Positions 5,700-59,706 of a stretch of 64,000 nucleotides of DNA are shown piece by piece; positions within the stretch are counted from its first letter, which is position 1; each line of letters begins with the position of its first letter. The translations under genes were made by a program, and so were the position numbers. Origin of the DNA: Candidatus Omnitrophota bacterium (lineage in GTDB: Bacteria > Omnitrophota > Gorgyraeia > B26-G9); the NCBI GenBank assembly GCA_043814605.1, contig JBDRJV010000022.1:149305-213304 (forward strand), read 5' to 3'. The notes under the pieces were generated by a model. The model was given only the letters and a program-made list of their open reading frames with translations, was not told the DNA's origin and ran no database searches.

Positions 5700-5703
<4 letters not shown>

Positions 5704-6293: not shown

Positions 6294-6299
6294 TTTTTA

Positions 6300-7631: not shown

Positions 7632-7661
7632 GATTTTTTCTCCTTTTTTAAATGAGCGCAT

Positions 7662-9643: not shown

Positions 9644-9672
9644 GATTCCTCCGAAAATTTTACACTTTTATT

Positions 9673-33511: not shown

Positions 33512-33513
33512 AT

Positions 33514-34287: not shown

Positions 34288-34290
34288 TTT

Positions 34291-35922: not shown

Positions 35923-36210
35923 AATTCTTCTTTAAATCTACATTCCTTGTTGATTTTTAATTTAGATATGCAATAATCTTAGGACAACTTTTGAATAATA
36001 TCCTTTTATTATTACTACCTTTCCCCTCCCTAGAAAAGGTGATTAATGAAGGTAAGACTTTTGATTGTACTTGCAGTGTAGAAAGTTATAAGTCGCTATA
36101 TTTATATATTATATAACATATTTATAAAGGTTTGTCAATATTTAGCTCAATAATTTTATACTCAAATTTAATATTTTTGTTCTTTTGAGATCATAACAGT
36201 ATTAATATCA

Positions 36211-37470
36211 TTAAGTTAAAGATTGGATTAAAGTAATTAAAGGCAAAAACATTGCTAAAACAATAATACCCACAACTACACCCATAATAATAACTAATAG
36301 TGGTTCAAGTAAAGCAGCTAACATATTAGTTGTAATTTCTACCTCTTCTTCATATGTATCCGCAACTTTAGAAAGCATACGGTCTAATGAACCGCTTTCT
36401 TCTCCCACACCAATCATATTAATCATTAACTCTGGAAATACTTCACTATTCTCAAGCACTGCAGAAATAAATCCCCCTTCGCGGACATTTTCTCCGATCG
36501 TGTTAACAGCCTGAGCCATAACCTCATTGCCACAAACTTGTTTAGTTAATTCTAAAGCCATTAATATCGGTACCCCGCCGCTAAGAAGAGTCGCTAGTGT
36601 TCGGGAAAACCGGGCAGAGGTTATTTTTTGAATCAACACTCCCATAACTGGTAAACGCAACATGATTTTATCATTAAAATAACGGAAAGAATAATTTTTT
36701 AATAATAGCTTATAACCGATAATAACTACGGTTGATATCCCCACAACAACATACCAGTACACCAGCAGTACATTACTTATTTTCATTAAAACCAAAGTTA
36801 AAAACGGCAAAACTACTCCGGTGTTTTCAAAAAGTTCCATAAACCGGGGAATCACAAAAACAACAATAAACCCTAAAATTCCCAGAGAAACTAAAAGCAC
36901 AAGACAGGGATAAACTAAAGCCGAACGGATTTTCTGTACTAATCTTAGGTTACGTTCCAAATAATCAGCCAACCGCTTAAGTACTTTATCTAAAGCTCCG
37001 CTAGTTTCCCCGGCTTTAACAATATTAATATATACTTTGGAAAATGATTCCGGATAATGAGCCAGTGCATTACTAAAAGACCGGCCAGACTCAATCATAT
37101 CGATAATATTTCCGATTACTGTTGCCATCATTTCAAACCTTGCTTGCTTTTTTAATGTCTGCAAGCCCCGGACTAAAGACAATCCGGCATCAAGCAGCAC
37201 AGAAAGCTGGCGGGTAAAAATTACTAAATCCTGTTGTTTAATTTTCCGCCGGCCTAAATTAAAAAAATTTATCTTATCCCAAAAATTCAAATTCACGCCA
37301 TCACTGGTTGATTTCTTTTTGTCTGCTTCGCTTGCTTTATTAATACTAACCGGATAAAGTTCTTTTTGTTTAATTTTAGTTAACGCTTCATTAAGCGTCG
37401 CGGCATCAATACTACCTCTTACTTCCTGCCCGTCTTTTTTAATTGCTGTGTAAATATATTTTTCCATCAA
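36211..37470 (-). CDS. pilC: Type IV pilus / T2SS inner-membrane platform protein (PilC/GspF family).
   Basis: Two T2SSF repeats, each followed by transmembrane helices. The N-terminal cytoplasmic domain begins YIYTAIKKDGQEVRGSIDAATLNEALTKIKQKEL. Confidence 0.9.
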   Translation of the reverse strand: MMEKYIYTAIKKDGQEVRGSIDAATLNEALTKIKQKELYPVSINKASEADKKKSTSDGVNLNFWDKINFFNLGRRKIKQQDLVIFTRQLSVLLDAGLSLVRGLQTLKKQARFEMMATVIGNIIDMIESGRSFSNALAHYPESFSKVYINIVKAGETSGALDKVLKRLADYLERNLRLVQKIRSALVYPCLVLLVSLGILGFIVVFVIPRFMELFENTGVVLPFLTLVLMKISNVLLVYWYVVVGISTVVIIGYKLLLKNYSFRYFNDKIMLRLPVMGVLIQKITSARFSRTLATLLSGGVPILMALELTKQVCGNEVMAQAVNTIGENVREGGFISAVLENSEVFPELMINMIGVGEESGSLDRMLSKVADTYEEEVEITTNMLAALLEPLLVIIMGVVVGIIVLAMFLPLITLIQSLT

Positions 37471-37488
37471 TTTTATATTTTTAGATTT

Positions 37489-39216
37489 TTATACATAACC
37501 TAAAGTAACATTCGCTAATTCCTCGATTGTCGTTTTCCCGGCAAATACTTTTAAAAGCCCATCATCGCGTAATGTCCGCATCCCATTTTTGATGGCTTGC
37601 TCTCTTAAACGCCCGACAGGAGCTTGATCTAAAATTAACGAACGCAAATCCTCATCTAAAACCAATAATTCAAAAATCCCAATTCTTCCTTTATAGCCTG
37701 TATTGCTGCATAAATTACAACCCCGGCCTTGATAAAATTTTTTATTCCCTAATTCCTTTAATCTTAGATCAAGCTCATCTAATTCTTTTTGCGCCGGGGT
37801 ATATTCATATTTACACTTATTACAAATACAGCGGACCAAACGCTGCGCCAGGATTGCCTCAACAGCAGAAGCAATTAAAAACGGCTCAACTCCCATATCC
37901 ACAAGCCGAGTTATCGCAGAAGGGGCATCATTTGTATGCAAGGTTGAGAAAACAAGGTGTCCGGTTAAGGAAGCATGGATTGCCATTTGCACAGTTTCTG
38001 CATCCCTAATTTCACCAACCATAATTACATCCGGATCTTGACGTAAAATATGACGCAAGGCAACGGGAAATGTAAGATTTATTTTTGGCCTGACCGAAAC
38101 CTGAATCAGGCCGGCTAAATCAAATTCCACCGGATCTTCAACCGTTATTATTTTTTGTTCAATTGTATTAATACTGCTCAGCGCAGAATATTGTGTTGTG
38201 GTTTTACCGCAGCCTGTGGGCCCGGTGCTTAAAATAATTCCGAAAGGTTTTTTAATTAAATTTTTTATTTTTTGCTTTATATCTGCTTCAAATCCTAATT
38301 CCTCGATAGACAGTTCCACTGTAGCTTTATCCAAAATACGAATGACCACGCTTTCCCCGAAAATCGTCGGTAATGTTGAAATTCTTAAATCTACCATTCT
38401 GCCGCCAATTCTGATTAAAGTCCTTCCATCTTGAGGCAGCCGTGTTTCCGCAATATTTAAATTTGTAATTACTTTAATGCGGGATGTAATTGCCCGATGC
38501 AATGATTTTGGCGGACAAACAATATCATAAAGCAATCCGTCTAAACGGTAACGGATCTTAAATTCATCTTGAAACGGTTCAAAGTGAATATCCGAAGCTT
38601 TATTGCGAATTGCCTGGATTAAAATAAAATTGATTAATTTAACAATCGGCAGCTGCGATGCCATCTCTTCAATGTTTTCAATCTTTTCTGTCTCATCAAT
38701 TAATTCCGGAACTGTTTCTTTAATCTCAGAAAAAATATCATCAACACTTTCGACTTCCTGAGCATAATATTTTTTTAATGTTTGAGAAATACTTGTAGGG
38801 GAAGCGATTTTTCCTTTTATGCTACAGTTAAACATAAACCTTAAATCATCAATAATACTAAAATTTAAAGGATCGGAAGTCGCCACTGTGAGGATGTTAT
38901 TTTTAAAACTAATCGGAACAATATTATAAAGACGCGCCACGGAACCAGGAACTTTATCTATAGCTTGGCGGTCAATGGAAATTTTTTCCAAATCCACAAT
39001 TTCCATTTTAGTTTGTACTCCTAGTGCCTTAAGCAGCTGGTTTTCATTAAGATAGCCAAGATTTACTAAAATTTGCCCTAAAGGCAAACCGCTCGTTTTT
39101 TGATTTTCCAGTCCTTCAGATAATGCCTCCGGGCTGATTAAACCTCTCTCTTTTAAGATATGTCCGATTGTTTTAAAACGAAAATTAGTTTCCATGTTCC
39201 ATGCCTCATGTTCCAA
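37489..39216 (-). CDS. pilB: Type IV pilus assembly (extension) ATPase PilB.
   Basis: An N-terminal GSPII_E domain is followed by the Walker A motif GPTGCGKTTT, the Asp and His boxes, and a tetracysteine zinc motif (CNKC...CNLC). Confidence 0.9.
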   Translation of the reverse strand: MEHEAWNMETNFRFKTIGHILKERGLISPEALSEGLENQKTSGLPLGQILVNLGYLNENQLLKALGVQTKMEIVDLEKISIDRQAIDKVPGSVARLYNIVPISFKNNILTVATSDPLNFSIIDDLRFMFNCSIKGKIASPTSISQTLKKYYAQEVESVDDIFSEIKETVPELIDETEKIENIEEMASQLPIVKLINFILIQAIRNKASDIHFEPFQDEFKIRYRLDGLLYDIVCPPKSLHRAITSRIKVITNLNIAETRLPQDGRTLIRIGGRMVDLRISTLPTIFGESVVIRILDKATVELSIEELGFEADIKQKIKNLIKKPFGIILSTGPTGCGKTTTQYSALSSINTIEQKIITVEDPVEFDLAGLIQVSVRPKINLTFPVALRHILRQDPDVIMVGEIRDAETVQMAIHASLTGHLVFSTLHTNDAPSAITRLVDMGVEPFLIASAVEAILAQRLVRCICNKCKYEYTPAQKELDELDLRLKELGNKKFYQGRGCNLCSNTGYKGRIGIFELLVLDEDLRSLILDQAPVGRLREQAIKNGMRTLRDDGLLKVFAGKTTIEELANVTLGYV

Positions 39217-39271
39217 GCTACAAGCTTCAGGATTTTTCTTGTGGCTTGCAACTTGGAGCTTGCTACCTGTT

Positions 39272-40336
39272 TTACCCTCTGCCTTGTACTTTTAATTTCA
39301 TTTGATCCGGATCAAATGCTTTTGAGATTGCATCCTCAGGACGAATTAAACCTTTAGAATACAATTCAAATAAAGACGAATCAAACGGTTTCATGCCGAA
39401 TTTAGCACCTGTTTGTAAATCAGATGTGATCCGATAAGTTTTTCTTTCGCGAATCAGGTTTTGAATTGATGGAGTGTTAATCATAATTTCGAATGCTCCC
39501 ACTCGGCCGCGGCCTGAGGCTTTAACAATAAGCTGTTGTGAAATCACCGCCAGAATAGAAGTGGAAAGCTGTGTTCTGATCTGCTCTTGTTGCTCATGCG
39601 GAAAAACATCAATAATCCTATCCACTGTAGATGCGGCACTGGTTGTGTGCAAAGTTGCCATAACTAAATGGCCTGTTTCTGCCGCAAGAATTGCCGCTTC
39701 AATTGTCGCTAAATCACGCATTTCTCCAACGAGAATAACATCGGGATTTTGTCTTAACCCTTTAATTAAAGCTTCACTAAAACTGGGCACATCCACCCCT
39801 AATTCACGCTGGGTAACAATCCCTTTTTTGTGGGTATGATAATATTCAATCGGGTCCTCAATTGTAATTATGTGACAATCCCGTTCTGTATTAATAAAAT
39901 CTGTTATTGTGGCCAGGGTTGTTGTTTTTCCTGAACCGGTTGGCCCGGTAACTAAAATTAATCCTCGCGGCCTGAATAATAACTCCCTGACCACCGGCGG
40001 TAAACCAATCTCTTCAAAGCTTAATAAATGCATAGGAATTAACCGCAGAGTCATTCCATAATGACCCTTTTGTTTATACACAGCCACACGGAATCGAGCA
40101 ACCTTTTCAAAAGCAAAGCCAAAATCAACTCCCCCGACTTCTTGAATCCGCCGCTGGTTTTCTGTACTGGTAATTGATTTCATTAATGTTTCTGTATCAG
40201 AGTGAGTCAGCGGATCATAATTTAAACTCATTAAGGTATTATCAATTCTTAAGGTCGGCGGTTTCCCCACAGTTAAATGCATATCCGATGCATTATGCTT
40301 TACGCACAATTGCAATAATTCTCCAATATCTGACAT
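39272..40336 (-). CDS. pilT: Twitching-motility (retraction) ATPase PilT.
   Basis: 354 aa, with no N-terminal GSPII_E domain. The motifs [24 protein letters not shown] and a C-terminal AIRNLIRE-like motif (SIQNLIRE) are present. Confidence 0.9.
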
Positions 40337-40356
40337 AATTTACCCCCTTTTTCTTA

Positions 40357-40386
40357 AGTAGCGAGTAGCAAGTAGAGAGTAGAGAG
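40357..40386. repeat. Heptamer tandem repeat (AGTAGCG AGTAGCA AGTAGAG AGTAGAG) immediately upstream of the pilT ribosome-binding site.
   Basis: Seen directly. Its first 14 nt are the inverted complement of TGCTACTCGCTAC at 40537-40549. Confidence 0.8.
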
Positions 40387-40559
40387 AAAAAAGTTTTTCA
40401 CTTTTAAATGAAAACACAAGCAACCCTAATCTTACTTACAACTGCCCTCATATTTTTTAAATGAACTTAATATTCTAAACAATTAATTTGTTGCTTTTAT
40501 TCTTGCTCCTTGTTACTCGCTTGCGCCCGCAAGGGTGCTACTCGCTACCAATCAAATAA

Positions 40560-42209
40560 TCAATCCACATCACTCTGCGTTATTCTGACCATCTCCTGAA
40601 ACGAAGTAATCCCGGCTAATACTTTCTCTTGAGCATGTTCTTTTAAAGTCACCATGCCCATAGTTCTGGCTTTTTCACGGATTATATTACTGGGTACTTG
40701 TTCGTGAATTAACCGCCGCATTTGATCATTAAGGACAAGCAGCTCAAAAATCCCTGTACGCCCTAAATACCCAGTATGAGCACACAGGCTACAACCCGCA
40801 GCGCGATAAAGCTGTAGGGATTTAGATTGATCATTTACTTCCAGAATTCTGATTTCATCTTTATGCGCAATATACGGCTGTTTACAATCCGGACAAAGCA
40901 ACCGCACAAGTCTTTGGGCTAAAACTGCCTGTAACGTAGCCGAAACCATATACGGTTTTATGCCCATATCCACTAGCCGGGTTATTGCCGAAGGCGCATC
41001 ATTAGTATGCAATGTACTAAAAATTAAATGCCCGGTCAGGGCTGATTGCACAGAAATTTTAGCTGTTTCTAAATCGCGTATTTCCCCCACCATAATTATA
41101 TCCGGCGCTTGACGCAGCATTGAACGTAAAACCCGCGCAAAAGTTAATCCGATTTGGTTTTTTATCTGCACCTGGTTAATTCCGTTAATTTGATATTCAA
41201 CCGGATCTTCAGTTGTTAAAATTTTCTTTTTTGATCTATCCACACTACTTAACACTGCATACAAAGTAGTACTTTTCCCGGAACCGGTGGGCCCGGTAAT
41301 TAAAATAATCCCATTAGGTAAATTGATGATTTCATCAAAAATGCTGCGTTGTTTCGGTAAAAATCCTAATTCTTCCAAAGACATAATCCGTTTATCTAAA
41401 ATTCTCATTACTACACTTTCACCGTAATAAGCCGGCAGAGTAGAAATTCTTAAATCAAATTCTCGATTATCCACAACTGTCCTGATCCGGCCGTCTTGCG
41501 GTAAACGTTTTTCCGCAATATTCATCCCGGACATCAATTTTATCCGGCTAATAATTGAAGCTTGTAATTTTTTTTCCGGAGATTCAATCTCCCGTAAAAC
41601 TCCGTCAATTCTAAATCTAATTCTTAATTGATGATTCATCGGTTCGATATGGATATCACTTGCTCTACGTTTATAAGCATCAGAAATCAGCATATTTACT
41701 AAATGAATAACCGGAGCATCATTAATAACTTCTTGTTCGTTATCAAGATCTACGGAAGGGGAATCAATATCTGCCTGAATTGGATAATATTTTTCCAACA
41801 AATTATCCATTTTATGATTCGGGATTAATTCTGCTTCTAATGAAAACCCTAACGTTTTTTCAAAATATTCTAAAGACAAAAAATTTAACGGATTATCAAA
41901 AACAACCAGAATTTTCTCTCCATTTTTTGATAAAGGAAAGATCCTGTAACGATTAGCAAAAAAAGGATTGATTAATTCTTGTATTTCTGTACTTTGTGCG
42001 TATTCTTCGGGATTAACATAACTTAACCCCAATTCCTGGATAACTAAATCTTTTAAATTCTCATCACAATTTATATTTAGCTGTTGGAAAATATGATCAA
42101 TGCGTTCTTGTGAACGCTGTTGCGTTTGTTCTGCCTGCTGTAATTGCTCGCAGGTAATAACTCCCTTAGCCATTAATAATTCACTGATAAATTTTTGTTT
42201 ATTCGGCAT
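40560..42209 (-). CDS. Second PilB/GspE-family secretion ATPase.
   Basis: An N-terminal GSPII_E domain is followed by the Walker A motif GPTGSGKSTTL and a zinc motif (CPDC...CSLC). The start overlaps the tpiA stop by 11 nt. Confidence 0.85.
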   Translation of the reverse strand: MPNKQKFISELLMAKGVITCEQLQQAEQTQQRSQERIDHIFQQLNINCDENLKDLVIQELGLSYVNPEEYAQSTEIQELINPFFANRYRIFPLSKNGEKILVVFDNPLNFLSLEYFEKTLGFSLEAELIPNHKMDNLLEKYYPIQADIDSPSVDLDNEQEVINDAPVIHLVNMLISDAYKRRASDIHIEPMNHQLRIRFRIDGVLREIESPEKKLQASIISRIKLMSGMNIAEKRLPQDGRIRTVVDNREFDLRISTLPAYYGESVVMRILDKRIMSLEELGFLPKQRSIFDEIINLPNGIILITGPTGSGKSTTLYAVLSSVDRSKKKILTTEDPVEYQINGINQVQIKNQIGLTFARVLRSMLRQAPDIIMVGEIRDLETAKISVQSALTGHLIFSTLHTNDAPSAITRLVDMGIKPYMVSATLQAVLAQRLVRLLCPDCKQPYIAHKDEIRILEVNDQSKSLQLYRAAGCSLCAHTGYLGRTGIFELLVLNDQMRRLIHEQVPSNIIREKARTMGMVTLKEHAQEKVLAGITSFQEMVRITQSDVD

Positions 42210-45040: not shown

Positions 45041-45580
45041 TTAAGGAATCGCAATCTTATAAACCATTAATTCACATCTAATCAGGTTGGATTGTTTGGA
45101 CTTAGGGCTGATTTCAAAAGCATTTATTTGGATAAGCATTGATGATTTTTCGATTGAATACATGAATACAACAAGATCTTCGATCTCAGCTTCACAACTT
45201 ATGTTTAAAGGAAACATTTGGGTTGCACCTTTTTTAATTACCTCCTGTGTCTTTAAATTATTTAAATGAACATAATTTGTATTTGCTAAACCCTCAATTT
45301 CCTTTAATAATGCTGCTTTTTCTTCTTCGGTTGAACCCGGTTTTACGATAAAAGAAGAATATTTCTTTTCTTCTGCTTCTATTTTTTTGCGCTGCATGAG
45401 AATTTTTGAATTTTTACTCATTTCATATTCTGTAGTTTTAATATTTTCTTCCAAAGTTTTCATCTTATGGATAATTGGATATAAAATAACTCTGTCGATT
45501 AAGGCAATCAAGACAAACGCGATTGAGGCATAAAGAACCATTTTTTCTCTTTTTGAAAATTTTTTTAAAAATTCTTGCAT
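45041..45580 (-). CDS. GspM/PilO-like bitopic protein; the assignment is positional.
   Basis: 179 aa with one N-terminal transmembrane helix (VLYASIAFVLIALI) and a periplasmic domain. It is the last gene of the pseudopilin block. Confidence 0.4.
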   Translation of the reverse strand: MQEFLKKFSKREKMVLYASIAFVLIALIDRVILYPIIHKMKTLEENIKTTEYEMSKNSKILMQRKKIEAEEKKYSSFIVKPGSTEEEKAALLKEIEGLANTNYVHLNNLKTQEVIKKGATQMFPLNISCEAEIEDLVVFMYSIEKSSMLIQINAFEISPKSKQSNLIRCELMVYKIAIP

Positions 45581-45615
45581 TTACTCACCTAATTTTTAGC
45601 TTTATCTTTAATGTT

Positions 45616-47055
45616 TTATTTGATAATCATACAGGTGATGCCAAAATCTGCCCAATCTTCATCATCTTGTTTTCGCGAAGTTGTATAATTAGTATTAACA
45701 TTACTAAAAAACTCGGAATCTTCTAGCGCGCTGACAAACGAAAAAACACTCGACATCGCCCGGCCTGTACCTTTAATATTTAAATTTTTTTCTTGATCCA
45801 TTTTAATATTGCTTACCATAATATCTTTAGGCAGAATATCACACAATGCGGCCAAGATTTCCAGAGAATAACCGCGCGCTTTTAAATAATGCTTGATCAC
45901 CCGCATTCTTTCCATGGATTTTTCTAAAACTTTAGCTTCCTGAGAAAATGATTCGTTTTTTGCTTTTAACCGAGACAAATACTCCCCCTTAAAATAAAGT
46001 TTAGCCATAAAAATCGCTCCAACAAGCAGCAATATTCCTAAAAAATAAACACACATTTTTACTAGTTCCTGGATTCTTTGCTCAAAAGAGATCTTTAATT
46101 TAATTTCATCCGGAATTAAATTTAAAACCGCGTCTTCTTTTTTTAAAACCGCACTGGTAAGATTAAAAAATGAAATGTGTTTATTTTTTGATATTGTCTC
46201 TAAAATTATTTTTGAAACCGGTACACACTCAAAATAAGGAATTACCTGTATGGGAATAAATACCTGCATTGCTAACTCTGACCTTAATTCTCCCATATAC
46301 TCTGTAGCTCCGGTTAAAATTAAAGTTCCGGGAGCTTGATCAATATCTTCAGACTGATAAGTTTCCAGTGATTTTTTTAACTCCTCGATAAAATCAATTG
46401 TTGATTTTTGTTTATCTAAAGTAATTTGTTTTGTTCCAATCGGTATAGTTCTTAAAAAAATAGGCATACCTTTAAAAGAAACGATAAAATCTGTAAAAGC
46501 TAACCCCATATGCAAAATCGCCACAGGATGTTCCTGTACTTCTTTTCTTATTTGTTCCGTACAAATTTTACTGATCGTTTCCGGAGCAAAAATCACTCGT
46601 TGTGTTTTAAATCCAGCTTTATCAATAAGGTCAAATTGCCGCTTTACTGCTTTGCGTACAACAATTACCAGTAAGATTTTTGAATAACTTTGTTTAACTA
46701 CTCCTAAATTAATATAATCAACGATAATTTCATCCCGGGAATAAGGCGTTTGCCGGCCGGACTGCAGATCAATAATTTCCCTGATTTCCTGATCATCCAG
46801 GGAAGGAATTTCTAAATTTTTAGTTATTGCCAAATGTAAAGGGATAACATTAATAATATAGGGATTTTTAATTTTTAAATCCGTAATTTCCTTAAAGATT
46901 AATTGTGCAATTTTATCGTCGGATAAACCCTGAATGGATTGATTAATTAAATCCACAAATTCTGCTTGTTTACCAGTGTTTTTATAATGCGCAAGCATCA
47001 GCTCATCATGGCTTAAATCCAGACTGATAATATCTATATTCTTCCTGATCTGCAT
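45616..47055 (-). CDS. GspL-like protein, or PilM-N-like fusion (cytoplasmic actin-like domain, one transmembrane helix, periplasmic domain).
   Basis: 479 aa. The cytoplasmic N-terminal ~300 aa are followed by a transmembrane helix (VYFLGILLLVGAIFM) and a periplasmic C-terminus. The architecture and the position after gspK support the call. Confidence 0.55.
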   Translation of the reverse strand: MQIRKNIDIISLDLSHDELMLAHYKNTGKQAEFVDLINQSIQGLSDDKIAQLIFKEITDLKIKNPYIINVIPLHLAITKNLEIPSLDDQEIREIIDLQSGRQTPYSRDEIIVDYINLGVVKQSYSKILLVIVVRKAVKRQFDLIDKAGFKTQRVIFAPETISKICTEQIRKEVQEHPVAILHMGLAFTDFIVSFKGMPIFLRTIPIGTKQITLDKQKSTIDFIEELKKSLETYQSEDIDQAPGTLILTGATEYMGELRSELAMQVFIPIQVIPYFECVPVSKIILETISKNKHISFFNLTSAVLKKEDAVLNLIPDEIKLKISFEQRIQELVKMCVYFLGILLLVGAIFMAKLYFKGEYLSRLKAKNESFSQEAKVLEKSMERMRVIKHYLKARGYSLEILAALCDILPKDIMVSNIKMDQEKNLNIKGTGRAMSSVFSFVSALEDSEFFSNVNTNYTTSRKQDDEDWADFGITCMIIK

Positions 47056-47060
47056 TTTTT

Positions 47061-48116
47061 TTAATTAAAATACCCTTTTTGACAACCTAAAATAACCCCG
47101 GCTTTTTTTGCCTGTTCCGTTAAATCTTTTTTAAAAATACATTCAACTTTACAATAATTTTTTTTATGACGAATCCGCCCTGTACTTTCAATTAAAAAAA
47201 TATTGGAAAAAGTGGAAACTTTTCCCGCGGCAACTAAATTACTTAAACTGGCTACTTCACTGGGAGTTAAAGAAAAAACTTTTTCTAAGCTTCCGATAAT
47301 GGATGATTCGGACAAAAAGTACTGATCGTCTTGAGTTGCGATCTGATTATCTTCTCCGCAACGAAAAGAAACTATTTTATCCACTAAATTTTCCGTTAAT
47401 CCCAAAGATAACAGTACAGTCCTTGAGGCAGTATTAATATTTACCCGGCCGGAACCGTATACAGTAAGGTAAGGTTTAATTTTATTAAATATTTCCTCAT
47501 CCATACCTTTAACTAAAAGCAATTCTTCCAGCACTTCAAACGATGCATTCTTACAATCATAAGGAACATTTAAATTTTGATAATATTTATCCTCTGCTCC
47601 CCGCGGCAATACCTGATCATCGGTATCTTTCCAATCAATAATACAAGAGGCAAGTTTATCTGCATCCAATGCTTTTAAGCCTGTCGTCCTATTAATTAAG
47701 AAAAAAAGCTCGCCGTCTTCGGCTTTATTAATATTAAGTTTACTCTCAACATCACACACTCCATACATAGTTTGAAATTCATTTTCCGTTCCCCGTGGTA
47801 AAAAATCATCAGTTTTATAACAATATCCCACATCAAAAAACCCTTCTCCGATTAACACATTATGGAAAGATTCCTGATCATTACTCCCCAGGTCTTTAAG
47901 CCTGATATAACTTTGCGTTGCTTCAAAATTTCCAATCTCGGCAATCGCTTGTTTTATCCCGGCTTCCGCAGCATCTGATAACTTATTTCTTGTTTCTATT
48001 CTGCCTAAAAAATCTAAGCGGGAACGAATCCCCCAGCCTAAGTATACGGCAAAAACAGCTAAAAATCCCAGCGCCCATAATACTAAAATCAAAACCGCCC
48101 CTTTTTTTCTTCCCAT
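47061..48116 (-). CDS. gspK: T2SS minor pseudopilin GspK-like.
   Basis: The N-terminus GAVLILVLWALGFLAVFAVYL is a prepilin-like hydrophobic segment without the +5 Glu. The size is about 350 aa and the gene follows the I/J-like genes. Confidence 0.65.
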   Translation of the reverse strand: MGRKKGAVLILVLWALGFLAVFAVYLGWGIRSRLDFLGRIETRNKLSDAAEAGIKQAIAEIGNFEATQSYIRLKDLGSNDQESFHNVLIGEGFFDVGYCYKTDDFLPRGTENEFQTMYGVCDVESKLNINKAEDGELFFLINRTTGLKALDADKLASCIIDWKDTDDQVLPRGAEDKYYQNLNVPYDCKNASFEVLEELLLVKGMDEEIFNKIKPYLTVYGSGRVNINTASRTVLLSLGLTENLVDKIVSFRCGEDNQIATQDDQYFLSESSIIGSLEKVFSLTPSEVASLSNLVAAGKVSTFSNIFLIESTGRIRHKKNYCKVECIFKKDLTEQAKKAGVILGCQKGYFN

Positions 48117-48222
48117 TATTTTATTTATACCTTTTTTAATATTATATTTCTTTATTTTTCAGTTTACAAACTCCACCGGTTATCTTTGGTCTGATTAATT
48201 TCGAATTATCTATAATTACAAA

Positions 48223-48861
48223 CTAGTATATTTCCCCTCCGACGGCCAGTTCAATTATTTTACTGTGCTTAGTCATTGTTTGACCTTCATTAATATTAAA
48301 GGTAAGCCTCACAGCTAAAGGATATTTTGTGTTCTTTTGTTTTTCATCTTTAGGCGGCCAGGAATCTATCCAAAAAAAAGATTTTTTTTCTTGATCATAA
48401 AAATTATACTCAAAAAGAAGAGAAGTTAATCCTTCTAGTAAAATTCGCGGGTTTGATTTTTTTTTGTTAGATTGCTCGGAAAATAAATTCTGATAACTAA
48501 AAAATTGCCTGTTAATTGCGCCTTTATTTTGATCATAAAAATATGTTATTTGCCCGATACGCTGCGAAACTTCTCCCGGGCTAACCGGAATATTTATCAC
48601 TCCCGGGAAATTTAAGTTATGCTCACCTCCTGTAAAATCAATGCCTTGAAAATAAATACAATTTTTTAAATCCATTTCTAGCCAGTCTAAAAACAAAGTC
48701 ATATCAATTTGCGATGTTTCTTGATTAACAATTTGCCATACTTTTAAACCATTAGAGATCATTACATATACTGTTACCGAAACAATAACGCTCATTGCCG
48801 CAGCTAAAAGCATTTCAATAAGAGTGAGTCCTTTTTGTTTATTTTTAATTTTCATGCGCAA
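48223..48861 (-). CDS. Minor pseudopilin (GspJ-like).
   Basis: The prepilin signal KGLTLIEMLLAAAM is present. 212 aa, located between the I-like and K-like genes. Confidence 0.55.
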   Translation of the reverse strand: MRMKIKNKQKGLTLIEMLLAAAMSVIVSVTVYVMISNGLKVWQIVNQETSQIDMTLFLDWLEMDLKNCIYFQGIDFTGGEHNLNFPGVINIPVSPGEVSQRIGQITYFYDQNKGAINRQFFSYQNLFSEQSNKKKSNPRILLEGLTSLLFEYNFYDQEKKSFFWIDSWPPKDEKQKNTKYPLAVRLTFNINEGQTMTKHSKIIELAVGGEIY

Positions 48862-49310
48862 TTGAATTTATATTTTTTTATCAGAAAATCAACGATTAAA
48901 ATATTACTGAAATATTTTTTTATCAAAGTGAATCTTTGAACCGAATACTGCTTTGAACCTACAAACCAGCTCATCCTTACTTTCACTAAATAAAGCCCCT
49001 GCCTTAAATCTTTTGATTCTAAAAGCACTTCCCAATTAAAAATTTTATTGCCGAATTTTACAATGCCGGCATCATTAAGCGTAACAAAGGTTTCCAGGGG
49101 ACTGTTAAAATCATTTTGCAGCTGTGCTATTTTTTCATTGATAAATAACTGTGCCTTTAAACGGTCATTAAATAAATTTATTGCATCTAAAGACATCAAA
49201 TATATTTCAAAAATCGCCACGATTCCCACAGCTAAGATCACGGTTGCTACCATTACCTCAACCAATGTAAATCCTTTACGGTTATAATTTGATATTTTTT
49301 TCATATTCAA
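48852..49310 (-). CDS. Minor pseudopilin (GspI-like).
   Basis: The prepilin signal RKGFTLVEVMVATVIL is present. 152 aa, downstream of gspG. Confidence 0.55.
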   Translation of the reverse strand: MNMKKISNYNRKGFTLVEVMVATVILAVGIVAIFEIYLMSLDAINLFNDRLKAQLFINEKIAQLQNDFNSPLETFVTLNDAGIVKFGNKIFNWEVLLESKDLRQGLYLVKVRMSWFVGSKQYSVQRFTLIKKYFSNILIVDFLIKKYKFNCA

Positions 49311-49352
49311 TTTTTTTATTCGCCATCTGCTAAACGCGATACACTGCTTTAA

Positions 49353-49754
49353 TCACCAATTCGTAACATCATCTTCACTGGCTAATCCGTCTCGGCCGAG
49401 GGAATATAAATCATAATCCTGCGGTCTATTTTGGCCGGGAGATTTATATTCATAAGTCCGGCCCCAGGGGTCAAGCGGCTCTTTTTCTAAATAAGGACCA
49501 TTCCAGCTGGCTAATGAGGCGGGATTAGCCATCAGTGCTTTTAACCCTTCTGCCGTCGAGGGAAACTGACCATTATCTAATTCGTAGAGTTTTAAAGCTG
49601 TAGCTATATTCGCCATAATATCTGCCCGGGCTGCAGCAGTTTTAGCCTGTTCAGAGCGTCCGGTTAACCGCGGCAAAACCATTGCCGCTAATGCACTGAT
49701 AATAATCACAACCAGCATTAATTCGATCAATGTGAATCCTTTTTTTCTATTCAC
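49353..49754 (-). CDS. gspG: Major pseudopilin GspG.
   Basis: The protein is KGFTLIELMLVVIIISALAAMVLPRL...DNGQFPSTAEGLKAL...WNGPYL...DPWGRTYEY...YDLYSLGRDG, which matches the GspG consensus closely throughout. Confidence 0.9.
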   Translation of the reverse strand: MNRKKGFTLIELMLVVIIISALAAMVLPRLTGRSEQAKTAAARADIMANIATALKLYELDNGQFPSTAEGLKALMANPASLASWNGPYLEKEPLDPWGRTYEYKSPGQNRPQDYDLYSLGRDGLASEDDVTNW

Positions 49755-49786
49755 AATAATCCCCTTCCTTTCATCTTTTGCTTTTT

Positions 49787-49821
49787 ATTTGTAATTTGAA
49801 ATTTGCCATTTGTCATTTCAA
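49787..49821. repeat. Five phased heptamers (ATTTGTA ATTTGAA ATTTGCC ATTTGTC ATTTCAA) in the gspG upstream region.
   Basis: Seen directly. The run is contiguous with, and partly overlaps, the left arm of the 35-bp palindrome. Confidence 0.8.
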
Positions 49822-49851
49822 TTAAGCTATTTTAAAAATAGCTTAATTGAA
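49817..49851. promoter_or_regulatory. Perfect 35-bp palindrome (TTCAATTAAGCTATTTT-A-AAAATAGCTTAATTGAA) overlapping the stop codon of the upstream metallopeptidase-like gene.
   Basis: The two 17-nt arms are exact reverse complements, confirmed base by base. The stem is AT-rich and no U-tract follows, so an operator or protein-binding site is more likely than a terminator. Confidence 0.7.
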
Positions 49852-50703
49852 TACGTATTCACACCATTTTTTTTCTAATTCAGCCGTTGTCCTCATTTGT
49901 ACTGGATAAGAAAACTTCAAAGCATCGTTAATTGTTTTGCCGTCTCTTAATTGACGGCAAAAAATCAAAAAATTCTCAGCACTATATTCTTCAATAAGAA
50001 ATCCGATTAAGGAAAACGCTTGCAAATAAAAAACATCAACTAAAGTATTTCCCTCTAATTCTAAAAGTTGTTTTTGAAAATTATCTTTATTTATACTGTA
50101 TATTTTTATTTTTTCCTGGCCATTTATTTTCCGCACATCTAGCTGCATTAATTCATCCAAAGAAAGCAGCAGGCTATTTTGCGCTAATTGCTTTACCATT
50201 TTTTTTCGTTGATTACGAATTTTTTCCTCTTCCCATTGAGCCACTCCTTCATCCAGCCATAAGGGGATTTGCCCGGTAAACCCGACAAAATCACGGAATA
50301 TCAAATGCGCCATTTCATGGGGCAGAAGTAAATCCAAAAAACCTCTCCCCCAAGCATAACTTACAATCATTTTTTTTTGGTAATCAGCTACTCCATGCGA
50401 CCAAGCATTCTGCCCTGTTCCTTGGATAAAAGACTCATGATCAGGGTAAATATATATTTTAACCCGGTTATTCCATTTCCAAAAATTAGAAAACCGCACA
50501 TAGCCTAAATCACGGGCGATGGAATCATAATATTTTTCTGATTGTAGACTTACTTCTTTGGCAAAATCCTGATAATCTGGCTGGTAGTAGACAAGGAAAT
50601 GTTCGCCTTTAAGCTCTGACCATTCTGCAGCCGCCTGGCTTAAATTTAAAAACATAAAAAAAAATATTAACAAATAAATTATTTTTAATTTCAAATTGAT
50701 CAA
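49843..50703 (-). CDS. Secreted putative gluzincin-type metallopeptidase (HExxH plus a downstream Glu; Peptidase_MA-like).
   Basis: A signal peptide is present. The motif HEMAH has a Glu 19 residues after the second His (LDEGVAQW), which is the thermolysin-type spacing. The gene is embedded between gspF and gspG. Confidence 0.5.
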   Translation of the reverse strand: MINLKLKIIYLLIFFFMFLNLSQAAAEWSELKGEHFLVYYQPDYQDFAKEVSLQSEKYYDSIARDLGYVRFSNFWKWNNRVKIYIYPDHESFIQGTGQNAWSHGVADYQKKMIVSYAWGRGFLDLLLPHEMAHLIFRDFVGFTGQIPLWLDEGVAQWEEEKIRNQRKKMVKQLAQNSLLLSLDELMQLDVRKINGQEKIKIYSINKDNFQKQLLELEGNTLVDVFYLQAFSLIGFLIEEYSAENFLIFCRQLRDGKTINDALKFSYPVQMRTTAELEKKWCEYVFN

Positions 50704-50704
50704 C

Positions 50705-51928
50705 CTATTTAACCATAATATTTAGTTGAAAAACAGGCAAGAGCATCGAAACAATAATAAAGCCGACAACAGCCCCCATAATCAAAATCATTATCGGTTC
50801 AAGCAAATTAGTCATGATTTTAATCGCTTCCTCTGTTTCCTGTTCATAGGTATTGGCTAATTCATGTAAAGCTTCGTCTAAATTCCCGGATTCTTCGCCT
50901 ACTTTAATTAAATTCACCATAAACTTGGGAAAAACATTAGATTGATCAAGCACCAGGCCAAAAGATTCCCCTTGTTCAATAGCTTTATAACCTTTAACTA
51001 ACTCTTGCTTGATAACCTCATTATTTAACGTAGGAATACTTGTCTGTATTGCTTTTAATAATTGGATACCACTCGCTAATAAGAGTTCCAGGGTAATGCT
51101 AAAACAAGCTAATTCTGCTTTTAAAAACATTTGACCAAAAATCGGCATTTTTAATTTAAAACTACCCAGTAATAATAATTCTCTCGAGGAAAGAGATTTT
51201 CGGTTAAGTAAAAAGATACTAAAACTAATTATTAACAGAGCAATTAACCAAACCCAGGGATTATTTAAAAAATTACTAAACGCAATAATAATTTTTGTCG
51301 GGAGTGGTAAATCTTGCCCTAATCGTGTGAAAATTTTCAATAACCTAGGCATCACAAATGTGAGCATAAAAATAATTGTTCCTATCCCTACTATACCCAT
51401 AAGGATAGGATAAGTGAGCGCAGTTCTAATTTGAGAAAAAATTCTTTCCTGTTTTTGACGATATTCCGCAATTCTTAACAGCGCTTTTTCCAGTGTCCCG
51501 CTTTCTTCCCCTGCCTTGACCAGGGCGATATAAAGAGCCGGGAAAATTTTCGGAAAAACCGCTAAAGTTGACGATAATGTTTTCCCGTCTTTTACTTCGT
51601 TATGGATACGGCCTAAAACAATTTGAAAATAACGGTTTGTTGCCTGATCTGATAAAATTTTTAATCCTTTTAAAATCGGCACTCCGGATTTCAAAAGCAC
51701 TGCTAATTGACGCGTAAAAACAGTTATTTGTTTTGCGCCAACACGCTCAGCCAAAAACCCCAAATTCGCTGGGGCCAAGCCTTCTGTGCCCTCAGCCAGT
51801 TCTATCCGAACCGGCATATATCCCATTTGGCTGATTCTTTCAACTGCCTCTTCGCGAGAAGCAGCACTGATTTGGGCATTAATAATCTTACCCGGACCTT
51901 TTTTTGCTTTATATTTATATGTCGCCAT
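50705..51928 (-). CDS. gspF: T2SS inner-membrane platform protein GspF.
   Basis: Two T2SSF repeats and three transmembrane segments. The N-terminal domain begins YKYKAKKGPGKIINAQISAASREEAVERISQMGYMPVRIE. Confidence 0.88.
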   Translation of the reverse strand: MATYKYKAKKGPGKIINAQISAASREEAVERISQMGYMPVRIELAEGTEGLAPANLGFLAERVGAKQITVFTRQLAVLLKSGVPILKGLKILSDQATNRYFQIVLGRIHNEVKDGKTLSSTLAVFPKIFPALYIALVKAGEESGTLEKALLRIAEYRQKQERIFSQIRTALTYPILMGIVGIGTIIFMLTFVMPRLLKIFTRLGQDLPLPTKIIIAFSNFLNNPWVWLIALLIISFSIFLLNRKSLSSRELLLLGSFKLKMPIFGQMFLKAELACFSITLELLLASGIQLLKAIQTSIPTLNNEVIKQELVKGYKAIEQGESFGLVLDQSNVFPKFMVNLIKVGEESGNLDEALHELANTYEQETEEAIKIMTNLLEPIMILIMGAVVGFIIVSMLLPVFQLNIMVK

Positions 51929-51963
51929 TTTTTCTTTCTGCTAATATTGCTAACTATTTATGT

Positions 51964-52461
51964 TCAATATCGTCGATTTGATTTTATGACAAACTTATTT
52001 ATTTTTAGGCAATCATCCTGAGGCAAATCCAGAAAAGATACAGCAGCCTCATATAAATCATCGGTTTTACTATTAACTCTGACAATCTTGGCTAAACATT
52101 GAAAAGTCCCGTAATTTTTCGGAAGAATTAAAATAATATCAATTACAGCCCCGGGTAATAATTCCTTAGTTGTTTTAAAAAACAAACCTCCGGCGCTAAT
52201 ATTTTTAGTCGTCCCGCTAAATTGCGGCTGGGTCTTTGCTTTTCCCGGTTTAAACACACTATAAAGAACTTTTAACTCAATATCTAAACGTTCATAAATA
52301 CGTTTATCCGCAATTGCCAAAGCTTCTATTTTTTCCGGCTTATACCCCATATCTTTGATTTTTTCGGTTGCCTCCTCATGCGATTCAGCATAGACGATTG
52401 ATTCAATAACAGTGCCAATATTTTTTTTAGCTAAATATTTAAATACTTTCATTTTTTTCAC
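51964..52461 (-). CDS. PilZ-domain protein whose N-terminal ~45 residues resemble the N-terminal cytoplasmic domain of GspF.
   Basis: The PilZ motifs are present: RIYER (RxxxR) and NISAGG ([DN]xSxxG). The N-terminus FKYLAKKNIGTVIESIVYAESHEEATEKIKDMGYKPEKIE aligns with the adjacent GspF N-terminus (about 18 of 40 identical). There is a 4-nt overlap with the upstream gspE-PilZ gene. Confidence 0.72.
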   Translation of the reverse strand: MKKMKVFKYLAKKNIGTVIESIVYAESHEEATEKIKDMGYKPEKIEALAIADKRIYERLDIELKVLYSVFKPGKAKTQPQFSGTTKNISAGGLFFKTTKELLPGAVIDIILILPKNYGTFQCLAKIVRVNSKTDDLYEAAVSFLDLPQDDCLKINKFVIKSNRRY

Positions 52462-54644
52462 TCTTTCATTTTTAAAACATAACGGTTTAATCTGCTGCGT
52501 TCAGAATTGGGTAAATCTAAAAAACAAACACCAATATCATAATTTCTGTTTGCCACCAGTTCATTACATCGGATCACCCGGGCTAAACATTCAATATTCT
52601 TTTCGCCTTCTTTTAATTCAATAACTAAATCAATAATTACCCCTTTATTTAAGCTTTCAGACGCACTAAAAAAAACACCTCCGGCGCTGATATTTTTCAA
52701 TACTCCGATCATTTCCGGTTCATATTCTGCATTTTTCTGCCCTTGTTGCTTTTGCTTAAAAAATTTAAACCGGATATAAGAATCATCTTCGCTCCGGTCA
52801 TAAATACGCCGGTCAGCTTTATTCGGGGATTTAATTTTATTTTTATCGATAGTTAATTTTACTTTTTTTAAATTTTCATTATTCTTAATTTCCTGCTGAA
52901 CCACATCCTCCCTCTGAACCATATCCTGTAAATCATCGGATTGGGTAACACGTAAGATTTCTTCTGTCGTTGTTATCCCTTCTAAAACTTTTAACCACCC
53001 GCTTTGGCGTAAAGTCCGCATCCCTGAAGTAATCGCAACTTTTTTAATTTGATCGCTTGCCGCTTTGCGAGATGTTAATTCTTTAATTTGTTCGCTCATC
53101 GTTAATATCTCATGAATTGCGGTGCGTCCATAAAACCCGGTATTATTACACGCCGGACAACCTTTCCCTTTATAAATTTTAATTTCCTGGGGAGCATTTA
53201 AACCTAATTCCTTTGTGATCTGTTCTTTTAAGGTAAGCGATACGTCTTTATCTTCCTGCCGGCATTTCGGACAAATCACTCTGACTAAACGCTGGGCAAT
53301 AAAAACATCTACGCTTGATGCCACAAGATAAGGTTCAAGTCCAATATCAATTAACCGGGTAATACCACTAGCTGCATCATTGGTGTGTAAAGTAGAAAAC
53401 ACTAGGTGCCCGGTTAAAGCTACACGGATTGCGATATCGGCAGTTTCCCGATCGCGTACTTCTCCGACCATCATCACATCCGGATCATGCCGCAGCATAC
53501 TGCGTAATCCCCGGGCAAAACTTAACCCAAATTCTGAAGCGATTTGAATTTGCGTTATGCCTTCAAGTTCATATTCTATCGGATCTTCAATCGTGATAAT
53601 TTTACGTTCACTCGTATTAATCGAAGATAAACACGCATAAAGTGTGGTGGTTTTTCCGCTACCTGTGGGTCCAGTCAGAAATATAATACCATGCGGCTTA
53701 TTGATTAGTTCCTTAAAAAATTTAAGTTCATCCGGAGCAAGCCCTAATTTATCCAAGTTAAAAAGCATAACCATAGGCAGAAGCCTAATCACCACGCTTT
53801 CTCCGTGCGGTGTTGGGATAAAGGAAACCCTTAAGTCTAAATTTTCATCCTGAATCTTTACAATTGCCCTTCCATCCTGCGGTATACGCCGCTCGACAAT
53901 ATTTAAATTTGCCATTAACTTTATCCGGGAAAGCACGGGTATTAAAAAATTTTTCATTTCCCCGGATACATTAGCATCATAAAGGATCCCGTCGATTCGA
54001 TAACGTAATCTGAGTTTTTTACGGTAAGGTTCAATATGAATATCCGTAGCTCTTTTTTTATACGCCTCTAAAATTATTTGGTTAACTAATTGAATTATTG
54101 AGATTTGGTCACTTGATTCTTCCAGATCATCGACTTTTGCTTCTTTTTCTGCCTGGGTATGGCTCTGGTAGGTTTTCTGAGCAATAATTTTATCAACTGT
54201 ATCTGCGCCCCATCCGTAATACTTATTAAGCATTTCCAAAACTTGATGTTCACAACTTAAAACAATTTTGACATCATAGCCTAAATGTGTTCTTATTTCA
54301 TCCTGTATTTTAATATCCAAGGGATAGGCAACCGCAACGGTTAAAATCCTATTTTCCAGAAAAAGCGGCATAAACTTAAAATAAGAAGCAATTTTTACCG
54401 GAATTCTCTGAATTAAAGTTACATCAACTACAATATCTGTAATATCTAAATATTTAATATGAAATTCCTTTGCCAAAAATTCCAGCAGTTCTTTTTCAGA
54501 AAGTTTACTTTCCTTGGCAACTAAAGGAATCGGTGAAACCTGTTTGGTGTAAGCAATATCAAAAAAATCCTGGATTTTTTTCTCATCCAATTTCTTTTTA
54601 TTTTTCAAAAGTCCGATAATTCTGGTATCAGTTTTTTTATCCAT
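52458..54644 (-). CDS. gspE: GspE/PilB-family secretion ATPase with a C-terminal PilZ domain.
   Basis: An N-terminal GSPII_E domain is followed by the Walker A motif [10 protein letters not shown] and a zinc motif (CPKC...CPAC). After that, about 120 C-terminal residues carry RRIYDR and NISAGG. This domain is paralogous to the downstream standalone PilZ protein. Confidence 0.85.
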   Translation of the reverse strand: MDKKTDTRIIGLLKNKKKLDEKKIQDFFDIAYTKQVSPIPLVAKESKLSEKELLEFLAKEFHIKYLDITDIVVDVTLIQRIPVKIASYFKFMPLFLENRILTVAVAYPLDIKIQDEIRTHLGYDVKIVLSCEHQVLEMLNKYYGWGADTVDKIIAQKTYQSHTQAEKEAKVDDLEESSDQISIIQLVNQIILEAYKKRATDIHIEPYRKKLRLRYRIDGILYDANVSGEMKNFLIPVLSRIKLMANLNIVERRIPQDGRAIVKIQDENLDLRVSFIPTPHGESVVIRLLPMVMLFNLDKLGLAPDELKFFKELINKPHGIIFLTGPTGSGKTTTLYACLSSINTSERKIITIEDPIEYELEGITQIQIASEFGLSFARGLRSMLRHDPDVMMVGEVRDRETADIAIRVALTGHLVFSTLHTNDAASGITRLIDIGLEPYLVASSVDVFIAQRLVRVICPKCRQEDKDVSLTLKEQITKELGLNAPQEIKIYKGKGCPACNNTGFYGRTAIHEILTMSEQIKELTSRKAASDQIKKVAITSGMRTLRQSGWLKVLEGITTTEEILRVTQSDDLQDMVQREDVVQQEIKNNENLKKVKLTIDKNKIKSPNKADRRIYDRSEDDSYIRFKFFKQKQQGQKNAEYEPEMIGVLKNISAGGVFFSASESLNKGVIIDLVIELKEGEKNIECLARVIRCNELVANRNYDIGVCFLDLPNSERSRLNRYVLKMKE

Positions 54645-54702: not shown

Positions 54703-54731
54703 ATTATCACATTGATACATTCTTTTGTCAA
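54703..54731 (-). promoter_or_regulatory. Sigma70-like promoter for the gspE-PilZ gene: TTGACA, a 17-nt spacer, then an extended -10 (TGT)GATAAT.
   Basis: The minus-strand sequence reads TTGACAAAAGAATGTATCAATGTGATAAT. It lies about 50 nt upstream of the start codon at 54644. Confidence 0.5.
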
Positions 54732-57062: not shown

Positions 57063-57065
57063 TTA

Positions 57066-59265: not shown

Positions 59266-59449
59266 TTTTTTTCCTTTTCCTTAATCTCGAACCCGTTATG
59301 GGTAAGAGATATTTATTAGTCTCACCACAGTTTACTGCGTGATATTCACTGGGTGGATAAATTAACTTCCTTGTTAAAAATTTTTGTTCTTTTTTTTAAA
59401 TTCTTATTAACTATTTTTTTAGTTAAATATTAAAAAAATAATACCTGTT

Positions 59450-59668: not shown

Positions 59669-59706
59669 AATCCCTCCAAAAAATTAGCCCATTACTAATC
59701 GTCAAC

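Follow-up and report, generated by a model that had tools for sequence, protein, structure and literature searches.

The window analysed here is a stretch of 64,000 nucleotides (nt) taken from a 221-kb contig of a Candidatus Omnitrophota metagenome-assembled genome (MAG). Its minus strand carries an operon for a type IV filament machine, in which three open reading frames (ORFs) follow one another closely: one of 728 residues at 54644..52458, which encodes an assembly ATPase of the GspE/PilB family; a small one that starts at either 52461 or 52452 and ends at 51964; and one of 407 residues at 51928..50705, which encodes the platform protein GspF. The ATPase has a PilZ domain, a type of receptor for cyclic di-GMP (c-di-GMP), fused to its C-terminus, and the small protein joins a copy of the N-terminal domain (N-domain) of GspF to a second PilZ domain. 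Public annotation names only an “ATPase, T2SS/T4P/T4SS family” (for the type II secretion system, the type IV pilus and the type IV secretion system) and a “PilZ domain-containing protein”. The features of the three genes are as follows.

52458..54644, minus strand: gspE-PilZ, the 728-residue GspE/PilB-family assembly ATPase with a C-terminal PilZ domain (NCBI MFH1459969.1).
54213..54461, minus strand: N1 domain of the ATPase, of the GSPII/MshEN fold (Pfam MshEN).
52950..54116, minus strand: T2SSE core of the ATPase, comprising its N2 and C-terminal domains (Pfam and motifs).
52812..52949, minus strand: low-complexity, K/E/Q-rich linker of about 46 residues leading from the ATPase C-terminal domain to PilZ (sequence).
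52461..52811, minus strand: fused PilZ domain, ATPase residues 612–728 (Pfam and motifs).
51964..52452, minus strand: small chimeric gene, GspF-type N-domain plus PilZ, 162 residues from the ATG (NCBI MFH1459968.1).
52318..52452, minus strand: N-domain of the small protein, residues 1–45, β-β-α-β (paralogue of the GspF N-domain).
51967..52305, minus strand: PilZ domain of the small protein, residues 50–162 (Pfam, BLASTP, AF2 and motifs).
50705..51928, minus strand: gspF, platform protein of 407 residues, of which the N-domain, residues 1–45, is encoded at 51794..51928 (MFH1459967.1).

The domains of the ATPase were delimited with Pfam. MshEN/N1D (PF05157) matched residues 62–144 with 59 bits, T2SSE (PF00437) residues 177–565 with 436.9 bits, and PilZ (PF07238) residues 644–724 with 47.4 bits, against a gathering cut-off of 22.5. 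We located the Walker A motif (GPTGSGKT, residues 325–332), the Walker B region (DPDVMMVGE, 387–395), the His box (412–420) and the tetracysteine pair, CPKC (458–461) and CPAC (496–499). In the PilZ domain, RRIYDR (612–617) corresponds to the RxxxR motif and NISAGG (651–656) to [DN]hSxxG, and both motifs are kept in every fused PilZ domain that we aligned. An earlier, sequence-only reading of this stretch had recognized the ATPase with its N1 domain, Walker and tetracysteine motifs, as well as the C-terminal PilZ signatures, and the hidden Markov model (HMM) scores bear it out on both counts. Its estimate of about 120 extra C-terminal residues was too low: since all solved PilB and GspE homologues end at query residues ≈566–572, the extra part amounts to about 160 residues, divided between the linker of about 46 and a PilZ domain of about 117. 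Among these homologues, Geobacter PilB (5TSG) aligned to the ATPase with 458 bits. Neither NCBIfam equivalog was passed, the score being 572.6 for GspE (TIGR02533; trusted cut-off 630.25) and 550.6 for PilB (TIGR02538; trusted cut-off 675.65). By these comparisons the protein is a member of the GspE/PilB family that is assignable to neither orthologue group.

The small ORF may be read from a GTG at 52461, which would add three residues (165 in all) and overlap the ATPase gene by 4 nt (GTGA), or from the ATG at 52452, which sits 5 nt past the ATPase stop codon with GAAAGAG ahead of it. The GTG start is doubtful, because the NCBI model MFH1459968.1 and all homologues begin at the ATG. When the ORF is started at the GTG, its M4 pairs with M1 of GspF in the alignment, and MKVFKY aligns with MATYKY of GspF. 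The gene therefore likely starts at ATG 52452, encodes 162 residues and is separated from gspE-PilZ by a 5-nt gap. The sequence-only reading had described a protein of 165 residues, with a 4-nt overlap, that was co-translated with the ATPase; the tight packing of the genes stands, the length and the overlap probably do not, and co-translation rested on the doubtful GTG.

Residues 53–158 of the small protein matched PilZ (PF07238) with 45.5 bits, again against a cut-off of 22.5. Its RxxxR motif, KRIYER, occupies residues 50–55, starting five residues past the N-domain, and is followed by NISAGG. In BLASTP, the PilZ part was 34% identical to the C-terminus of the ATPase over 123 residues (E = 2e-22), and the N-terminal part was identical to residues 1–43 of the adjacent GspF at 21 of 43 positions (49%, E = 2e-10). 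Both relationships, the paralogy of the two PilZ domains and the likeness of the first ≈45 residues to GspF, had been proposed from the sequence alone and hold. The N-domain of the window protein was assigned through pairwise and family alignments; the stored Pfam annotation of the homologues P0127, P0131 and P0166 lists T2SSF_N (PF28597) together with PilZ (PF07238).

The AlphaFold2 (AF2) model of the small protein, with a mean pLDDT (the score predicted for the local distance difference test) of 81.2, shows strands at residues 2–9 and 15–22, a helix at 25–34 and a strand at 38–44, followed by a disordered segment at 48–51 ahead of RxxxR, β-barrel strands between 54 and 140, and a helix at 145–160. 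This amounts to a β-β-α-β N-domain and a PilZ barrel with a C-terminal helix. Modelled alone, the N-domain gave a pLDDT of 90 and the same elements (strands 2–9 and 15–22, helix 25–34, strand 38–45), and these three strands and one helix are the secondary structure reported for the N-domain of PulF. The best Foldseek matches of the small protein in the Protein Data Bank (PDB) were MotI/DgrA, MrkH, PP4397, YcgR, Alg44 and BcsA, with E-values from 1.8e-5 to 1e-3. A 47-residue model of the N-domain retrieved only non-significant matches to small proteins (T7 Gp2 and YkzG, E at least 0.036), and the PDB holds no structure of a GspF N-domain, only crystal structures of Cyto1 and the pseudo-atomic model 3JC8. 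The fold test covers the small protein, to which the fused PilZ domain is linked by the 34% identity noted above. By HMM and motif both PilZ domains qualify as canonical, and that of the small protein does so in its predicted fold as well.

Alignment of 12 small proteins showed that R51, R55, S86 and G89 of the PilZ motifs are invariant, and that position 84 is N in at least 90% and otherwise D. Seven residues that are shared with GspF are likewise invariant (Y6, A8, K10, A22, A28, G36 and Y37). The N-domains nevertheless show systematic differences from their GspF counterparts: Y (in 11 of 15) stands at position 21 rather than E or I, position 41 is E rather than R or K, position 34 is E rather than Q, and position 18 is S rather than G. 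The change at position 41 is a reversal of charge on the third strand of the domain. Such substitutions may mean that the domain binds with an altered or complementary specificity.

We searched for relatives of the fusion in two separate ways, with the C-terminal 284 residues of the ATPase as query and with a pattern scan over the GTDB species representatives. The former yielded about 23 clusters of proteins with T2SSE and PilZ, the named ones all from Omnitrophota. The latter yielded nine loci, eight from Omnitrophota (two of them in single-cell genomes) and one from a MAG labelled Planctomycetota. The ATPase-PilZ ORFs at the GTDB loci are intact and 662–745 residues long, and further examples have 728–778 residues. 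A frameshift artefact is excluded, because intact single ORFs of 713–778 residues with T2SSE and PilZ are found in many independent assemblies, and the GspE-PilZ fusion postulated from the sequence alone is thus a recurrent one. Neither gene is an artefact. The locus in the MAG labelled “uncultured Planctomycetota bacterium” (L010, CAYMFW010000009.1; loci are denoted by L-numbers) has the most divergent gspE-PilZ/gspF pair, and its ATPase ORF as called, of 662 residues, is without most of the N1 domain; it represents either an occurrence outside Omnitrophota or an issue of labelling or binning.

The small protein is rarer than the fusion: it forms 12 clusters when grouped at 90% identity, and among 1.84 billion sequences represented at 50% identity about 12 are full-length members; in total, 21 proteins matched the N-domain profile. 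Wherever the flanks exist, the small gene lies between gspE-PilZ and gspF. It is present once in the window and in L006, L015, L019 and L020, twice in L017 (apart from this, in full synteny with the window), and three times in L001 and L005. In eight species gspE-PilZ directly abuts gspF, with a gap of at most 160 nt that leaves no room for a gene. A 300-residue variant with an N-domain and two tandem PilZ domains (P0145, L019:349-1251) directly follows the PilZ end of gspE. Orthologues of the small protein are about 40% identical and retain the motifs. For the orthologues in L001 and L005, the ratio of nonsynonymous to synonymous substitution rates (dN/dS) was 0.17–0.25 overall, 0.10–0.17 for the N-domain and 0.19–0.33 for PilZ. 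The small gene is under purifying selection, and the N-domain is its more constrained half.

A probable origin of the small gene can be read from the gene order at the junction, [ATPase core-PilZ][N-domain-GspF core], and from the relatives of each half. Scanning 1.84 billion representatives with HMMER showed ATPase-fused PilZ domains to be the nearest relatives of the small-protein PilZ outside the family: 19 of the top 60 matches were recognizable T2SSE-PilZ proteins, and many of the rest were truncated C-termini of such proteins. The N-domain is far closer to that of the cognate GspF than to that of the other platform protein in the window. Taken together, gene order and relationships indicate that the small gene was born by tandem duplication across the gspE-3′/gspF-5′ junction. 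A duplicated segment consisting of PilZ, stop codon, spacer and N-domain would have placed one in-frame N-domain-PilZ gene between its two parents, and further rounds of duplication would have given the zero to three tandem copies seen in relatives. The junction was probably duplicated more than once. In L020, the N-domain of the small protein groups with that of its own GspF (56% identity, versus 30–35% to others) with 93.5% bootstrap support in neighbour-joining trees, which suggests a second, independent birth or gene conversion; a similar pairing in L015 has 50% bootstrap. We also considered a single monophyletic origin of all small genes and rejected it as unsupported, given the placement of the L020 copy and a bootstrap of 18% for the main clade of small-protein N-domains. 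The duplication, the variable copy number and the degenerate MshEN motif described below were all absent from the sequence-only reading.

Related motors can sense c-di-GMP through the MshEN motif, RLGxx[LVI][LVI]xxG[LVI][LVI]xxxxLxxxLxxQ, a 24-residue sequence that occurs in two copies with a 5-residue spacer and that we scored at 11 key positions. The best match in the PilZ-bearing ATPase of the window had 6 of the 11, and the motif would fall at the extreme N-terminus. The first motif scored 5–8 in every N-terminally complete PilZ-bearing ATPase, and the second motif of L009 scored 9. As a positive control, the PilB-like paralogue in the window scored 9 in both motifs, which the canonical 5 residues separate. 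At four loci, a standalone MshEN protein of about 155 residues, homologous to the GspE N1 domain, is encoded directly upstream of gspE-PilZ; these proteins scored 11 (L007:1805-2278, 11 + 9 in tandem), 10 (L008:1244-1720), 11 (L009:5044-5508, 11 + 9 in tandem) and 9 (L013:758-1222). An example of these canonical or near-canonical tandems is RLGEILIEKGLINNAQLEEALNEQ and FLGNILVNKGWINKANLSEGLAIQ, separated by a 5-residue spacer. The N-domain-PilZ gene is absent from these four loci; in this small sample, standalone MshEN proteins and N-domain-PilZ chimeras appear to be mutually exclusive. Across the phylum, three types of c-di-GMP receptor module thus accompany this machine. This is a strong indication that c-di-GMP controls it, PilZ having taken the place of the ATPase's own MshEN site.

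What the analysis shows is the architecture, its homologies and conservation, the purifying selection, a variable copy number and a decayed MshEN motif. Building on these findings, we consider it fairly probable that Omnitrophota possess a T2SS-like filament machine with c-di-GMP receptors built into and around its motor, including a chimera born by junction duplication, and that its activity is tuned by c-di-GMP. In this model, the motor carries a canonical PilZ receptor on a flexible C-terminal tether of ≈46 residues, and both PilZ domains would bind c-di-GMP. In YcgR/PlzD-type receptors, binding of c-di-GMP is relegated to the linker between domains. Because the RxxxR arm of the small protein begins five residues past the N-domain, ligand binding might be expected to hold the N-domain clamped to the PilZ barrel, much as YcgR-, PlzD- and MotI-type receptors do. 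The clamp would switch the access of the soluble N-domain to the site on the machine used by the tethered N-domain of GspF, for which it would compete or to which it would add. The outcome would be a c-di-GMP-dependent tuning of pseudopilus assembly, of either activating or inhibitory sign. From the sequence alone, the small protein had been proposed as a possible c-di-GMP-dependent decoy or adaptor, a role that is still conjectural.

The only functional study of the GspF N-domain that we found was made on PulF (Guilvout 2023, PMC10790770). Residues 1–54 of PulF form a peripheral, flexibly tethered domain that is not needed for stability or oligomerisation, and its deletion significantly reduced secretion and pilus assembly without abolishing them (PMC10790770). 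The sequence-only reading had taken this domain for the part of GspF that contacts the ATPase, which is not upheld: the PulE:PulF model omits it, and in that model Cyto1 and Cyto2 contact the N2 domain of PulE (PMC10790770).

Several points weigh against the proposed tuning mechanism or the history behind it. The dispensability of the PulF N-domain for basal function (PMC10790770) leaves a docking-site mechanism without an established target. The predicted template-modelling score (pTM) of the AF2 model, 0.62, leaves the geometry between the two domains undefined, and the stored Pfam annotation of the window protein lists PilZ only, without T2SSF_N. The main clade of small-protein N-domains has a bootstrap of only 18% in the trees, which are neighbour-joining trees on short alignments. 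No GGDEF, EAL or HD-GYP gene, for a c-di-GMP cyclase or phosphodiesterase, was found among the larger ORFs of the window that were annotated, and the organism is known only as an uncultivated MAG.

A different arrangement of the same parts is possible, and we regard it as unlikely: the PilZ fused to the ATPase and the GspF N-domain could sandwich c-di-GMP in trans and thereby latch the motor to the platform in a c-di-GMP-dependent manner, and Omnitrophota would repeatedly have made soluble chimeras that compete with the latch, as uncouplers, or extend it, as bridges. Exactly these two domains are recurrently fused, which is a Rosetta-stone argument for their interaction, and the fusion in L020 probably arose independently. 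One and the same complex holds both as satellites on flexible tethers, RxxxR adjoins the N-domain as it does in YcgR-type receptors, where the ligand lies between two domains, and the differences between the small-protein and GspF N-domains at positions 41 (E versus R/K) and 21 (Y versus E/I) point the same way. However, the adjacency of the genes alone also accounts for a fusion by duplication. The sole apparent GspE-GspF fusion, P0081 (L021, ENA contig_4088), was discarded, as the secretin, ATPase and pseudopilin genes of that locus are fragmented in the manner typical of a frameshifted long-read assembly. If true, such a latch would for the first time assign a defined function, regulatory docking, to the GspF/PilC N-domain, and would represent a new way in which a second messenger controls type IV filament machines.

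We find it improbable that the fused PilZ acts only in cis, by autoinhibiting or activating its own ATPase, with the small proteins buffering or sensing c-di-GMP locally and their N-domain having no docking role. There is precedent in BcsA, in which a C-terminal PilZ domain gates a processive machine, cellulose synthase, and which is among the fold matches; moreover, most fusion lineages are without the small protein, so that the fused PilZ must act alone there. A functionless appendage, however, is not expected to be under stronger purifying selection than the PilZ domain it is attached to (dN/dS 0.10–0.17 versus 0.19–0.33), nor to retain the seven invariant residues that it shares with GspF.

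That the PilZ domains are adaptors independent of c-di-GMP, like the Xanthomonas and Pseudomonas PilZ proteins that bind PilB without nucleotide, seems very improbable. The PilZ-PilB interaction is an established part of type IV pilus regulation, but the non-binding PilZ proteins have lost RxxxR and [DN]xSxxG, both of which are invariant in all the members aligned here, and the fold matches are to ligand-binding PilZ domains. Least credible of all is that a frameshift or misassembly joined pilZ to gspE, or that the small ORF was left behind by a duplication and is now decaying: such mistakes are found in metagenome assemblies, as L021 illustrates, but the fusion is uninterrupted in at least nine species-level genomes (two of them single-cell) and about 23 protein clusters, the small gene recurs in its dozen or so clusters at 90% and representatives at 50% identity, and orthologues only ≈40% identical keep the motifs with a dN/dS well below 1.

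Beyond the three genes to which the tuning mechanism is ascribed, the operon and its upstream region comprise two further features.

45041..50703, minus strand: rest of the operon, from the Peptidase_MA_2-like gene through the PilO/GspM-like gene (domain annotation).
54703..54731, minus strand: promoter-like site, TTGACA, 17 nt, TG-GATAAT, with 11 of 12 matches (consensus match only).

The product of gspF has two T2SSF repeats (206.8 bits in Pfam). After gspF, the operon continues with genes for a Peptidase_MA_2-like protein, GspG, a further pseudopilin, a GspJ-like and a GspK-like protein, a PilM-PilN fusion and a PilO/GspM-like protein, followed by PGK; this gene order is kept in L001 and L017. 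Measured against the classical T2SS set (GspC, D, E, F, G, H, I, J, K, L, M and O), analogues of E, F, G, J, K, L (the PilM-PilN fusion) and M (the PilO-like protein) are present, together with one further pseudopilin. Domain annotation of the operon (45041..54644) revealed no secretin, GspC or prepilin peptidase, and a secretin lies 13 kb off, in a separate PilB/PilT/PilC cluster. On this gene content, the machine is best described as a T2SS-like type IV filament system. The PilM-PilN fusion, which is also found in L017, has 479 residues (45616-47055, minus strand) and combines an actin-like PilM part with PilN; it presumably plays the role of GspL. Every full-length locus encodes, directly 3′ of gspF, a Peptidase_MA_2-like protein of about 286 residues (49843-50703 of the window, minus strand; L001:5069-5935; L017:11773-12630), which is unusual for a T2SS operon and may serve as a substrate or as an accessory protein in the periplasm. 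The promoter-like site sits in the 158-nt gap between atpD and gspE-PilZ and is the best such match of the region, in which the total count of promoter-like matches shows no excess over a shuffled control.

A second type IV filament cluster lies at 30870..42209 (minus strand). It encodes a secretin of 645 residues, PilM (543), two unannotated proteins, a PilC-like platform protein (419) with an N-domain of its own, a PilB-like ATPase (575), PilT (354) and a third assembly ATPase (549). The window holds three assembly ATPases, and PilZ is found on one only. Upstream of gspE-PilZ is an F-type ATP synthase cluster (54803-59970, minus strand) with genes for the epsilon, c, fused b-delta, alpha, gamma and beta subunits. 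The b-delta fusion has 244 residues (ATP-synt_B + OSCP), no gene for the a subunit is evident within the cluster, and the layout is identical in L017. The same 64-kb window contains a V/A-type ATPase operon (c, I, D, B, A and DUF2764) at 3431-10512 (minus strand).

At the edge of the window, 60101-64000 (minus strand) encodes the C-terminal part, at least 1299 residues, of a giant repeat-rich protein whose frame is open to the window end. It has one C-terminal hydrophobic segment, and no Pfam domain was found in it; its last 520 residues are 56% identical to the end of a 4867-residue protein at the equivalent position in L017. A preprint by West-Roberts et al. (bioRxiv 10.1101/2023.11.21.568195) describes T2SS-like loci and small pilZ genes near the giant genes of Omnitrophota, and the giant protein of the window fits that description. 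The system lies beside a gene for a giant surface protein, in Omnitrophota that are ultra-small and putatively predators or epibionts; its signalling may therefore govern how the cell attaches or secretes while in contact with a host.

In the literature on T2SSE-PilZ, on T2SSF_N and on Omnitrophota and c-di-GMP, we found neither architecture described, in keeping with the judgement of the sequence-only reading that the arrangement is unusual. ATPases are nowhere mentioned in the PilZ architecture survey of Galperin and Chou, and the accessible part of West-Roberts et al. (bioRxiv 10.1101/2023.11.21.568195) mentions neither the fusion nor a GspF-derived N-domain. The parts are known; the arrangement and the mechanism of gene birth appear, to judge from this literature, not to have been described previously. 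The locus would also be a clear case of a new gene arising from tandem duplication across a two-gene boundary, and the chimera, a natural, detached, receptor-fused copy of the N-domain that is under selection, would serve as a ready-made probe for the docking site.

Control of such motors by c-di-GMP is known to proceed either through an N-terminal MshEN site or through a PilZ-FimX complex on the N1 domain of PilB. The tethered C-terminal PilZ with decayed MshEN, together with a soluble PilZ/N-domain chimera, would constitute a third arrangement. Like the ATPases of the MshE/PA14_29490 type (Roelofs 2015, PMC4624772; Wang 2016, PMC5013675), the Omnitrophota motor is a GspE/PilB-family ATPase with a c-di-GMP sensor in its own chain, and here too the MshEN fold is N-terminal; unlike in those, the tandem 24-residue motif is degenerate (6 of 11), and the presumed sensor is PilZ at the C-terminal end. 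The Xanthomonas/Pseudomonas PilZ-FimX-PilB system (PMC8389850; review PMC11656802) similarly uses a separate small protein of PilZ fold that acts on the filament ATPase under c-di-GMP. Its PilZ has lost the binding motifs and binds PilB N1, while the EAL domain of FimX senses the ligand, whereas the Omnitrophota locus encodes unbroken PilZ motifs, a small protein with a copied platform N-domain, and a further PilZ on the ATPase itself.

In BcsA and Alg44, both among the fold matches, a canonical PilZ is likewise a fixed part of the subunit that drives export, whether as catalyst or as motor, but those subunits are a glycosyltransferase or an HlyD-like protein, without a paralogous soluble chimera, instead of a hexameric secretion ATPase. 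The best structural matches of the small protein, YcgR, PlzD (VCA0042), PP4397 and MotI/DgrA, share its succession of N-terminal domain, RxxxR linker and canonical PilZ. Their N-domains are PilZ-derived β-barrels (PilZN and related), in contrast to the 45-residue β-β-α-β domain from GspF. This domain, finally, resembles the GspF/PulF N-domain (PF28597; Guilvout 2023, PMC10790770) in its 49% identity to the cognate GspF and its three strands and one helix, and differs from it in being free of the membrane protein, in its fusion to PilZ, and in having Y21, and E41 instead of R/K.

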